Shown here: one piece after another, positions 597 through 50,603 of the stretch
How positions within the stretch are numbered: the stretch's first letter is position 1
How the letters are laid out: every line of letters begins with the position of its first letter
NCBI GenBank assembly: GCA_017302575.1
Contig: JAFLDD010000001.1
Location: 1,365,409 to 1,429,408, forward strand
Reading direction: 5' to 3'
DNA length: 64,000 nucleotides
DNA from: Alphaproteobacteria bacterium
GTDB taxonomy: Bacteria > Pseudomonadota > Alphaproteobacteria > Rickettsiales > UBA3002
Position numbers and translations under genes: made by a program
The notes under the pieces: model-generated
Database searches by the model: none
What the model was told of the DNA's origin: nothing
The model's input: the letters and a program-made list of their open reading frames with translations, nothing else

Positions 597-1348
597 GATT
601 TTCCCCTACCGCCTGATAGCATCGCTTCTCTCGAATTTACTTCAACCAGTCTGGTGTGAGGTATTTCATTGCTGGTTGGATAGAAGGGTTCGGACTTGCT
701 TAAGTCTTCGCTCCATCCATCCACCAATCTTTCCCAACGCGGCAGGTCGTGGTGATAGAGCCGCACATCTTCGCCATCACGCACGGTTTCATGTAGTGTT
801 ACGTATTTTGGAGCGCCATCATGGGCTTCAAAACAAATAGATTTGTCGGGGAATAATCGGAAATATTCCCAATTGCGGATAAAGGATAACTGGTTAGGAA
901 TCACATCAGCTATGTACTTCTTGCCTTTGGCCAATCGGCGCTCAAGATACCCTTCTATATCCCGTATAACGCCATAGGCCTCTACCGTATATCCGCGCTC
1001 TTTGGCGCGCCCGACAAAGTCGACGAGTTGTTCCCTGTTTTCACAATGGGTTTCAAAGATGATGGTTTTGCCTGAGTCCAACGCCTCACTAAATACCTTT
1101 TCTCGCGCATCTAAAAAGCCTTGAAGATTAGCACCCGATTTCTCTGAGTGCGACACAGGCATATGGTGTGTGGCGATATCCTTAAAGTCATTAAAACTGA
1201 TGACATGACTATCGTCTGGTGCGCCAGAGAGTTTTTTTGCGTGTTTAAGCAAGCGTGATTTACCCGAGCCCGTCGCGCCAGCTACGAAGATTAATTTAGG
1301 GGTCTGTTCGGGCAGTTCATTGGTCATTAAATCCAGCTTATCCGCCAT
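593..1348 (-). CDS. Zeta-toxin-like P-loop kinase, orphan (251 aa)
   Basis: Walker A LIFVAGATGSGKS, then IIFETH and GYTVEAYGV segments typical of zeta toxin/AAA_33 kinases. Stop overlaps the trxB stop. No partner gene. Confidence 0.6.
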   Translation of the reverse strand: MADKLDLMTNELPEQTPKLIFVAGATGSGKSRLLKHAKKLSGAPDDSHVISFNDFKDIATHHMPVSHSEKSGANLQGFLDAREKVFSEALDSGKTIIFETHCENREQLVDFVGRAKERGYTVEAYGVIRDIEGYLERRLAKGKKYIADVIPNQLSFIRNWEYFRLFPDKSICFEAHDGAPKYVTLHETVRDGEDVRLYHHDLPRWERLVDGWSEDLSKSEPFYPTSNEIPHTRLVEVNSREAMLSGGRGKS

Positions 1349-48328: not shown

Positions 48329-48405
<77 letters not shown>

Positions 48406-48406
48406 C

Positions 48407-48619
48407 TTACGCATCGGCTTTGTTTTGTTGAATACGCAGCATCAAGAGCGCATCAAATTCTGCTTTATTCAGTGGTCGCCCTTCATCAGAGATGAGCAAT
48501 GGTGAGGCTTGCGTAAAACCTACGCCCACTTCGTAGATTTCAGCTTTTATAGCTTTGCCATTTTGCATTTTGATGCGGCACGGCATGCTGTCGAATTTAT
48601 AATATGCCCAGTTGCTCAT
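48407..48619 (-). CDS. Small hypothetical protein (70 aa), candidate immunity/antitoxin
   Basis: ATGA overlap with the upstream 608-aa gene and its own GAGGGA RBS; function inferred only from position. Confidence 0.6.
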   Translation of the reverse strand: MSNWAYYKFDSMPCRIKMQNGKAIKAEIYEVGVGFTQASPLLISDEGRPLNKAEFDALLMLRIQQNKADA

Positions 48620-50442
48620 CGTTCCCTCACAGGCTGTAGAGGCTCGCTTTTTGGTTTGTTATTAATCATATCCAACATGCGCTCTGGAATAATCTCGGCG
48701 CCCTTTTTCTGGTTCAGTTCGCGCGCCATTTTTACATATTCTTGCTGCCAGCTAGGATCCGCGTCACGAATATAGGCGATATGAACAAGCTTGTGCACGT
48801 TTTGTAGTTGGGTAACGGCGTCTGCCACTCTCTCCTTCTTTTCGTCAGGGCTTAGAGCTTCCAGCTCATCATCCATCATGGCTGGGATAACAAGATCTTC
48901 TCGGCGCTGTAGTGTGGTCGGAGAAGCTTCAGCGCGAGCGTCTTTGTGGCCGATGTAGTCGCGTAAGAATGTAGAAAGATAAAATAGGGTTTCTTTGTTG
49001 TCGATGGCCCTCAAAACTTTAGTAATATCGTGATCAGGAATTGGGCTATTCTTTTCCTGAGCAAGGCCTCTGCTTACATGATTTATATAGGATTCCAGCG
49101 ACGGGTGCGAATTAACATTGGCCACGAAATCATCTTGCATCATGTGCTCAATCAAGCGTGACCAAAAGCGAATGCGTTGAATCACACTTTCCAGCTTGGA
49201 ATCATTGGGAAGTTCAAAATCACGACGTATTTCGTACATCAAATGACTGATGCGATCTGCGCGATTGACCTGATCTTTTTCACCAATGCTGATGTCGGCA
49301 ATAAGGCCGTGAAAAGCGATATTAAACTCGTCGCTCACATTCCCACCATCGCGCATATGCATCGATTCTATGACGTGTGGGTAGCTAGTGACGAGGCGGT
49401 CGCGAATATGATGCAGCGTTTCAGGAAAACTTTTTGAAGTGAATTTAATACGAATCAAATCATCAATCGCATTTTCTTCTTTGCCACGTGCCAGCGCCTT
49501 ATCTTTAGTGCGTTCTTCATTTTTGGGACCATTGGCAATAATGCGAATATCCAAGCGCATTTCTTTGGCGAGTTTGTTGAAATGCATGGCGAGGTACTTG
49601 TCTTTAGGGGTTCTGCTTCTCTCTTCGTCGGATAGTTTTGACCACTTTTCTTCGGTACTTTTTTCCACGCTTTCTAAAAGATCCGATGCGTTGTCGCGTG
49701 TTTTCAGGAATGTACGGAAGGTAACCAGAATGGCCTTGCGCACGAGCGCATATTGCATTTCCTGCGCACGAGCGAGTAGTGTTTGCAGATCATCCTTACC
49801 TTGGGTGATGCGCACCAAATTCTTTTTGCCCGCGTGGGGATTTTTTATTTCGCTAGCTTTCTGCGGATCATCACTGAAATTAAGCAAATGGTCGTAGCGC
49901 AGCATATGTAGCGTTTCAGGGAGGTCCTGGTGCGTAATGCTGTGGCTTGTTTCGATTGGCAAGTTATGTTCTTGGCGTGGCTCGCCCACTAATATTGGCA
50001 GTGCGCCCGCACGCTCGGCGGCCCGCATATCATGCGGTGTGTTTCCGATGTAGACGCGTTTATAGCCTTCATAATTCTTATAGCCATCCAGCAATAGGAA
50101 GGGAGCTGGCTTGCGCCGTAGTGATTCTTTTCCTGCTTTGAAAATAGGAAAGCCATGGTCTGGCGTATCTAGGTTTCCGAAGATGGACTCATAATCTTCC
50201 GGGAAAGCCTTCATAAGCTTTTCTTCGACAGATAGCTTGTCGCCATCATCGTTTGTGGCGATGAAGAAGGGTATATTTTGTGCTTTGAGATATTTCAGGG
50301 TCTCAAGCGCGCCCTTTATAGGCGTTACAGCGCCCGTTTGTTTGTCGTAATTTAGCAGCGTACCATTCAGGTCCAGTCCTACCACCAATTTGTTATTGGC
50401 CGGGTGGTCGCTATGCGGGATTGTAAATACCGAGTCGGGCAT
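48616..50442 (-). CDS. HAD-like domain fused to divergent RelA/SpoT-like nucleotidyltransferase domain (608 aa)
   Basis: HAD motifs DLNGTL (24-29), ATN, RKPAP, YIGNTPHD (131-138); RSH-like GPKNEERTKDK (305-315), DDLIR (327-331), LIADISI, SHLMYEIRR (399-407); GGAG RBS. Confidence 0.6.
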   Translation of the reverse strand: MPDSVFTIPHSDHPANNKLVVGLDLNGTLLNYDKQTGAVTPIKGALETLKYLKAQNIPFFIATNDDGDKLSVEEKLMKAFPEDYESIFGNLDTPDHGFPIFKAGKESLRRKPAPFLLLDGYKNYEGYKRVYIGNTPHDMRAAERAGALPILVGEPRQEHNLPIETSHSITHQDLPETLHMLRYDHLLNFSDDPQKASEIKNPHAGKKNLVRITQGKDDLQTLLARAQEMQYALVRKAILVTFRTFLKTRDNASDLLESVEKSTEEKWSKLSDEERSRTPKDKYLAMHFNKLAKEMRLDIRIIANGPKNEERTKDKALARGKEENAIDDLIRIKFTSKSFPETLHHIRDRLVTSYPHVIESMHMRDGGNVSDEFNIAFHGLIADISIGEKDQVNRADRISHLMYEIRRDFELPNDSKLESVIQRIRFWSRLIEHMMQDDFVANVNSHPSLESYINHVSRGLAQEKNSPIPDHDITKVLRAIDNKETLFYLSTFLRDYIGHKDARAEASPTTLQRREDLVIPAMMDDELEALSPDEKKERVADAVTQLQNVHKLVHIAYIRDADPSWQQEYVKMARELNQKKGAEIIPERMLDMINNKPKSEPLQPVRER

Positions 50443-50603
50443 AGCTCCATCTTAGAGGATAAGTATGACAAGCGCGTGACAAAGAAAGGAAAAATGGGTT
50501 TGTCGCACCAAGGTTTTTATGAAGGTTTTGTGACAGATATGCGTGCTTGATTCGTTTGCCCACTCTGCTACTTGATTGCCAAACCCTCACAGGAACGAGT
50601 GCC

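Follow-up and report, generated by a model that had tools for sequence, protein, structure and literature searches.

A HAD-fused, very divergent RelA/SpoT-fold protein and its translationally coupled 70-aa partner look like a new branch of toxin-plus-antidote systems

Two overlapping minus-strand genes, encoding proteins of 608 and 70 amino acids (aa), were analyzed in a 64,000-nucleotide (nt) stretch of contig JAFLDD010000001.1 of an alphaproteobacterial assembly (GCA_017302575.1), the whole of which is called the window here. The large protein joins an N-terminal HAD domain to a core which, as fold comparison of its predicted structure showed, is a very divergent synthetase-fold domain of the RelA/SpoT-homologue (RSH) type, and the gene pair is an accessory chromosomal module. 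This module looks like a new branch of toxin-plus-antidote systems on the RSH fold, and we put at about 50% the probability that it consists of a toxic RSH-fold pyrophosphokinase neutralized by the small partner. Such a reading is favored because of the strict translational coupling of the two genes, their accessory distribution at several sites, and the precedent of RSH operons acting as toxin-antitoxin (TA) or effector-immunity pairs. The parts of the module are as follows.

48616-50442, minus strand: large gene, 608 aa, with HAD domain, helical linker, RSH-fold core and family-specific C-terminal helical domain (open reading frame, ORF)
48407-48619, minus strand: small partner gene, 70 aa, translationally coupled (ORF and alignment of seven homologues)
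49963-50391, minus strand: HAD domain, capless and IIIA-like, residues ~18-160 (Pfam HAD_2, TIGR01662)
49141-49839, minus strand: RelA/SpoT-synthetase-like region, residues 202-434, comprising N-terminal helices and a core of five strands (AlphaFold2, Foldseek, motif table)
48619-49140, minus strand: C-terminal helical domain, residues 435-608 (AlphaFold2 model, alignments)

Residues 190-608 of the large protein gave no significant match in the Pfam, NCBIfam or PDB sequence libraries, and profiles of the whole family and of its core, when compared with the PDB by sequence alone, found no RSH, which was reached only through comparison of folds. The window protein had no match to RelA_SpoT (PF04607, gathering score 27 bits), its distant homologues scored 12.6-13.5 bits against that model (best single-member E-value 0.014), and RelA_SpoT was the sole Pfam family touched by several members (3 of 10), below threshold and over nearly the whole 113-position model. 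Aligning the family core by hhalign with the synthetase (SYNTH) domains of long RSHs encoded in this genome and in related ones (E 3.5e-4, probability 37%) paired GxK...K with GReK...K and LSD with LSD. AlphaFold2 models, built from the family alignment of 10-11 sequences, had a predicted local distance difference test score (pLDDT) of 83.3 and a predicted template modeling score (pTM) of 0.82 for residues 190-608, and a pLDDT of 83.7 for residues 202-434. When the core model was searched against the PDB by Foldseek, matches 1-22 were all RSH synthetases (E 3e-5 to 2e-2, probability up to 1.0), the best being S. aureus Rel (7oiw; E 2.9e-5, probability 1.00); Tas1 (6ox6; E 1.1e-3, probability 1.00), the Rel proteins of T. 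thermophilus and B. subtilis, RelSeq, SpoT, SAS1 and an exported small alarmone synthetase (SAS) of Streptomyces were also matched, and TENT2, Pol beta and terminal uridylyltransferases (TUTases) ranked after the RSH proteins at much lower probability. The longer C-terminal model (residues 190-608) gave the same RSH result, and the viral library yielded a protein of Sinorhizobium phage phiN3 annotated as 'RelA/SpoT family protein' (E 4.7e-5) as well as a phage protein under the name 'Tas1'. The template modeling (TM) scores to RSH were modest, at 0.33-0.45, and the core is therefore placed on a remote branch of RSH. A preliminary description of this locus, made from its letters, had proposed a RelA/SpoT-like central domain and a fold search as the way to check it, and the nucleotidyltransferase fold was indeed recovered by Foldseek on these models.

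For comparison of motifs, 16 family members were compiled, 13 belonging to a subfamily A and three to a subfamily B. G305, K307, K315, D328, R331 and R407 are invariant in the family, Q391 and H400 nearly so (full-length numbering), and all the family-invariant residues are kept in the window protein. The family motifs GxK.......K, D..R, (S/G)G-hydrophobic, [E/D/Q]x[Q/S/..] and H..Y stand against RxKxxxSxxxK, DxxxxR, GY(Q)S.H, ExQ.RT and H..YK of RSH proteins, with the Arg at D+3 in the family versus D+5 in RSH. The peptide motifs quoted in the preliminary description were all present in the translation, and the order in which it had mapped them (GxK...K, D..R, G-loop, ExQ position, H..Y) matched the family alignment; so did its caveat that GY has become GN and ExQ has become DIS, as N368 takes the place of the Tyr and D383 that of the Glu. 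Among the 16 members, the position of the RSH catalytic Glu is filled by E in 10, by D in the three of this genus and by Q in the other three. Between genomes G000 and G003, which represent different species, the RSH-like core (residues 291-415) is 92% identical at the aa level, compared with 65% for the HAD domain, 66% for the C-terminal domain and 81% for the small protein; the nonsynonymous rate (dN) of the core is 0.045 and its ratio to the synonymous rate (dS), omega, is ~0.03, with dS saturated. Because of this identity and this omega, the core bearing the D/S variant is under strong constraint and not decaying. The large-protein orthologues in G003 and in a JGI contig are 70-84% identical, with dN/dS ~0.07. 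The C-terminal domain carries a conserved helix, H..AYI..A...W...Y......N, which is specific to this enzyme family, and had no family match besides a sub-threshold one of 30 residues to DUF7167.

The two genes are tied by an ATGA overlap, in which the small-gene ATG (48619-48617) lies on the large-gene TGA (48618-48616), and the unit was borne out at its expected coordinates on the minus strand, between tRNA-Arg and icd. Ribosome-binding sites had initially been assigned to both genes. For the small gene this holds, a Shine-Dalgarno sequence GAGGGA being located at 48628-48623 with a spacer of 4 nt, and for the large gene it is doubtful, the GGAG there being only 2 nt from the ATG and reading GAAG in the G003 orthologue. 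The basic C-terminal tail of the large protein was considered as a signal for a type IV secretion system (T4SS) and rejected, since its R/G/E-rich end follows from the embedded small-gene Shine-Dalgarno sequence (GTG AGG GAA CGA TGA).

Enzymes of subfamily A are 340-493 aa long, or 608-612 aa with the HAD domain, and 13/13 subfamily-A loci have, downstream of the enzyme gene and overlapping it, a gene that encodes a 66-73-aa homologue of the small protein. This pairing, kept at all 13 loci and in four genomic contexts, is far beyond chance, and the 70-aa gene, first described as a coupled partner from a single locus, thus proved to be a conserved one. A profile search with the small protein gave 17 clusters, all the placed ones lying directly behind a gene of the enzyme family, and alignment of seven homologues revealed Y6, P13, R15, A26, Y29, G32, G34, F35 and P49 as invariant. 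The small protein belongs to no Pfam, NCBIfam, PADLOC or PHROG family, and no relatives of it were found in a scan of metagenome contigs. In locus L012 the small partner gene (1107-1322, plus strand) has a GTG start, overlaps the enzyme gene and is missing from the public gene calls; the annotation of small partners may be incomplete across the family.

The enzyme family is very rare and unclassified: searching 1.84 billion representative sequences exhaustively with HMMER retrieved only seven clusters. By profile search within the taxonomic family, the enzyme was found in 9/40 genomes and 3/13 genera, and the pair occupies four types of site: between cysA-tRNA-Arg and icd (this genus), between sspB and tadA (several species of genus g9), beside malate synthase, and at pgk/gap. 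In genomes G022 and G021 sspB directly adjoins tadA with no trace of either the enzyme or the small gene. The gene-neighborhood check suggested in the preliminary description thus showed the pair recurring in four different contexts. A canonical RSH of 724 aa is encoded elsewhere in the genome and is the sole PF04607 match there.

The N-terminal HAD domain noticed at the outset is real, with Pfam HAD_2 matched over residues ~20-155 at 30.7 bits against a gathering cut-off of 23.8 (E 4e-7) and a sub-threshold HAD-IIIA match to TIGR01662 (E 4e-6). Motif I reads DLNGT (D23-L-N25), so that the nucleophile D23 is kept and Asp+2 is Asn, and in G003 it reads DLHGT; T63 of motif II and K110 of motif III are both present; motif IV is GNTPHD, in which the first Asp has become Asn, pairing with GDSISD of PDB entry 3kzx and reading GDVGTD in G003. 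The full catalytic set of a HAD enzyme is not found, the general acid/base and one metal ligand being lost. Judged by these motifs, this is a genuine HAD fold whose active site is partly degenerate and not conserved within the genus. The fusion is limited to one genus, and the conserved unit is the enzyme plus the small protein. No paper in the searched library was found to pair a HAD with a SAS or a toxic SAS (toxSAS), in agreement with the initial remark that no described HAD-RSH fusion was known. A separate, C1-capped HAD gene follows the gene of P0007, a member of subfamily B, and its core is 29% identical to the window HAD (E 5e-9); the 'Rosetta-stone' inference from this gene was demoted to suggestive, as its C1 cap contrasts with the capless HAD of the window.

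Upstream of the large gene a predicted promoter was found, the elements of which are listed here together with the convergent neighbor of the module.

50465-50482, minus strand: Pho-box-type direct repeat TTGTCAC-GCGC-TTGTCAT in the place of a -35 element, the sole zero-mismatch site in the window
50449-50454, minus strand: predicted -10 element TAAGAT (TAGAAT in G003), 10 nt past the box, 6 nt ahead of the ATG
50519-50536, minus strand: a further box-like repeat, CTGTCAC-AAAA-CCTTCAT, weaker than the first box and 54 nt upstream of it
48329-48405, plus strand: tRNA-Arg(CCT), predicted by ARAGORN, a convergent neighbor outside the two-gene system

The arrangement TTGTCACGCGCTTGTCAT-N10-TAAGAT is kept in G003, and the weaker repeat is kept there as CTGTCAC-ACAA-TCTTCAT. 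Genome-wide, 12 exact Pho-box sites were counted versus 0 for the reversed control, and the geometry box-N10-TAnnnT-N6-ATG is identical at 4/12 of them, namely window 50449-50482 (minus strand), C1:431684, 1711347 and 1736850, the other three genes encoding proteins of 316-389 aa without a Pfam family. Because the -10 element ends only 6 nt before the ATG, the mRNA would be leaderless, and the large gene is probably transcribed in this form from a predicted PhoB/OmpR-type activated promoter common to orphan genes. The Pho box was rejected as a family-wide feature, since the g9 and g12 modules have none upstream. Beside sspB in genus g9, exact Pho-box repeats (L043 1183-1199, L044 820-836, L053 988-1004 and L048 918-934) precede proteins of 282 to >800 aa without a Pfam family; the sspB-tadA neighborhood in g9 is a variable site whose cargo differs by species.

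The neighbors of the module, cysA, tRNA-Arg and icd, are housekeeping genes. The 3′ end of tRNA-Arg(CCT) lies 1 nt from the stop codon of the small gene, and icd is divergent on the plus strand with its start ~160 nt upstream of the large gene. No terminator was predicted for the module, and read-through of the small gene would enter tRNA-Arg in antisense, 1 nt past the stop. A tRNA-targeted genomic island was considered and rejected, as neither a direct repeat of the tRNA 3′ end toward icd nor an integrase within the 2-kb segment was found; the G+C content (0.45-0.49 vs ~0.52) is only mildly lower, and the tRNA adjacency is treated as incidental. In genome G002 of the same genus (L042, G002:C51, 1-333), tRNA-Arg(CCT) lies inverted ~150 nt upstream of icd without the module, and the contig end beside this tRNA encodes the N-terminus of an IS481-like transposase (MNRLAERYDINPKTVAKWKKR...). 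This arrangement suggests a rearrangement mediated by an insertion sequence (IS), and with the transposase-like fragment at its contig end the G002 tRNA-Arg/icd site is not a clean empty site. In genus g2 (L039, G004:C40, 48-5101) cystathionine beta-synthase- and gamma-lyase-like genes stand between tRNA-Arg(CCT) and icd, again without the module, and because of these genes the tRNA-icd interval is regarded as holding differing cargo by genus. Activated sludge or wastewater is the origin of the source organism, and records of its relatives carry 'Rickettsiales bacterium' labels of metagenome-assembled genomes. In a wastewater RNA run (X11), one mismatch-free contig of 250 nt covered 49981-50229, within the HAD-coding part; it was rejected as evidence of expression, being too weak and possibly derived from DNA carry-over.

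How a toxin and its antidote might work here can be outlined by analogy with described systems. Given its fold, its conserved phosphate-binding lysines and its Asp/Arg pair, the enzyme is expected to be an ATP-using transferase of the RSH type, which would bind ATP through the GxK...K and D..R elements and transfer pyrophosphate to the 3′-OH of a nucleotide or of the CCA end of a tRNA, a reaction that would be harmful when unchecked. The small protein, supplied in a fixed ratio through translational coupling, would bind the enzyme and hold it inactive, and release of the enzyme would stop growth of the producing cell or, were it exported, of the cell that receives it. In this genus the pair has gained the N-terminal capless HAD and the predicted PhoB-type leaderless promoter; the HAD would most likely bind, or slowly dephosphorylate, the phosphorylated product or substrate and would thereby correspond, in cis, to the hydrolase domain of a long RSH or to a hydrolase antitoxin, and efficient phosphatase activity is doubtful because its catalytic acids are altered. 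Conserved overlapping bicistronic SAS operons have proved to be TA systems, and hydrolases can serve as antitoxins (PMC7229694), and immunity or antitoxin proteins accompany toxSASs (PMC12691689).

Nevertheless, several observations weigh against a toxin-antidote pair. The subfamily-B members (P0005, P0007 and P0008; 318-321 aa) lack the small partner altogether. There is no PADLOC match and no mobile-element neighbor, and no integrase, att repeat, phage or defense genes accompany the pair. The small protein has neither a DNA-binding nor a known antitoxin domain; its identity across genera (36-43%) exceeds that of the enzyme core (20-25%), which is atypical of antitoxins and immunity proteins, and the charges of the two proteins do not fit the type of a basic toxin with an acidic antitoxin. 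Moreover, the catalytic Glu is replaced by D383 in the window and by Gln in three members, and the G-loop has no acceptor-stacking Tyr, a residue that is not conserved in the family.

Several of these points would be accommodated if the module were a non-toxic signaling or metabolic enzyme, the main alternative, which we consider rather unlikely. Under PhoB-type control, its RSH-fold domain would synthesize a phosphorylated nucleotide messenger, with the small protein as an obligate subunit for regulation or specificity. The HAD would then remove phosphate, either in a 'make-and-break' manner like HD-SYNTH or as a second biosynthetic step. A small partner that is more conserved than the enzyme, solo relatives without an antidote, housekeeping neighbors, strong purifying selection and conditional expression from the predicted Pho-box promoter are all consistent with such a role, whereas the patchy accessory distribution, the variable insertion sites and the presence of a canonical long RSH in the genome weigh against it. 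The HAD bears on both sides of the question: it was recruited twice, fused here and as the separate gene after P0007, but the two HADs differ in cap type, so that the adjacency of the HAD gene to P0007 may be a coincidence (~6% by chance, by our estimate), and the HAD acids vary within the genus, with N or H at Asp+2 and GN or GD in motif IV.

A sub-variant of the toxin-antidote reading, in which the large protein is an effector exported by a T4SS into a eukaryotic or bacterial neighbor and the small protein provides self-immunity or acts as a secretion chaperone, is distinctly unlikely. The Pho-box/leaderless promoter common to several Pfam-orphan genes, the VirD4/TraG coupling protein encoded in the genome and the Rickettsiales label of the lineage in public records would suit it, but the Pfam and NCBIfam searches revealed no delivery domain, the protein has no signal peptide, the box is missing from the modules of other genera, and secretion genes were not seen near any locus.

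The HAD-RSH protein and its small subunit might also form a self-contained synthesis-and-turnover machine for an undescribed phosphorylated product, for instance a tRNA with a modified 3′ end or a nucleotide bearing a 3′-(pyro)phosphate. Trimming or holding of the 3′ phosphate would fall to the capless, PNKP-like HAD, and the 70-aa protein would serve as an obligate regulatory subunit or even as the substrate. A PhoB-type regulator would turn on this machine along with a set of orphan proteins, which may be secreted. We regard this as speculative and improbable. An inactive scaffold of RSH and HAD folds that only binds nucleotide or protein, for example as a sensor or regulator, is very improbable, since the loss of the G-loop Tyr, of the HAD general acid and of one HAD metal ligand, and the reading of ExQ as DxS here and as QxE, QxL or QxH in three relatives, are outweighed by the retained phosphate-binding lysines, D328, R331, Q391 and H400, the 92% conservation of the core, the Glu kept in 10/16 members, and the ability of Asp to stand in for Glu as a metal ligand, with a conserved Glu following in IGE.

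RSH-fold enzymes are the source of the alarmones (p)ppGpp and (p)ppApp and of toxins that pyrophosphorylate tRNA, and to our knowledge each RSH branch discovered to date has introduced a new substrate or mode of control. The branch described here is missed by current family models and has a C-terminal domain of its own as well as a strictly coupled, unusually well-conserved 70-aa partner. As a compact two-gene pair with natural variants that differ in the catalytic residue (E, D or Q) and in the presence of the partner, it could show the reach of RSH chemistry and of its neutralization. The Pho-box/leaderless promoter links the gene to an orphan-gene regulon in an uncultured Rickettsiales-like lineage and offers a handle on the role of that regulon.

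Compared with known systems, the predicted promoter shares with the PhoB-dependent Pho-box promoters of the E. coli pstS/phoA type the 18-nt 7-4-7 repeat of CTGTCAT type, which is located 10 nt upstream of the -10 element and replaces the -35 element, but here it precedes leaderless accessory and orphan genes and not phosphate-acquisition genes. With the long bifunctional RSHs (Rel/SpoT), the catalytic domains of Rel being the best structural matches, the large protein shares a hydrolase-superfamily domain N-terminal to the SYNTH-fold domain; this domain is, however, a partly degenerate HAD with phospho-Asp chemistry in place of the HD pyrophosphohydrolase, and TGS, ZFD and ACT domains are lacking. 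The (p)ppApp-synthetase effectors Tas1/Apk1-Tis1 and MuF-Apk2 (PDB 6ox6; PMC12691689, PMC12226406) likewise combine a divergent RSH fold with a small gene directly downstream, but here the N-terminus carries a HAD or nothing, no PAAR, MuF or other delivery domain was found in Pfam or NCBIfam, and the neighbors are cysA, tRNA and icd, with no secretion cluster nearby. With the toxSASs (FaRel, FaRel2, PhRel, PhRel2 and CapRel; PMC7229694, PMC11782079) the module shares the RSH fold, a two-gene operon in which the gene of a small unrelated partner overlaps that of the enzyme, conserved as a bicistronic unit in 13/13 subfamily-A loci, and an accessory distribution, and the small alarmone hydrolase (SAH) antitoxin, a neutralizer of hydrolase type, offers an analogy for the HAD. 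It differs from them in falling below the RelA_SpoT Pfam threshold, in its extra C-terminal helical domain of ~175 aa, in the missing G-loop Tyr, in a partner that lies outside known antitoxin families and is more conserved than the enzyme, in having the enzyme gene first, and in the absence of a defense or phage context. By analogy with these systems, the module would work most like the toxSAS TA modules and the Tas1/Apk-immunity pairs.

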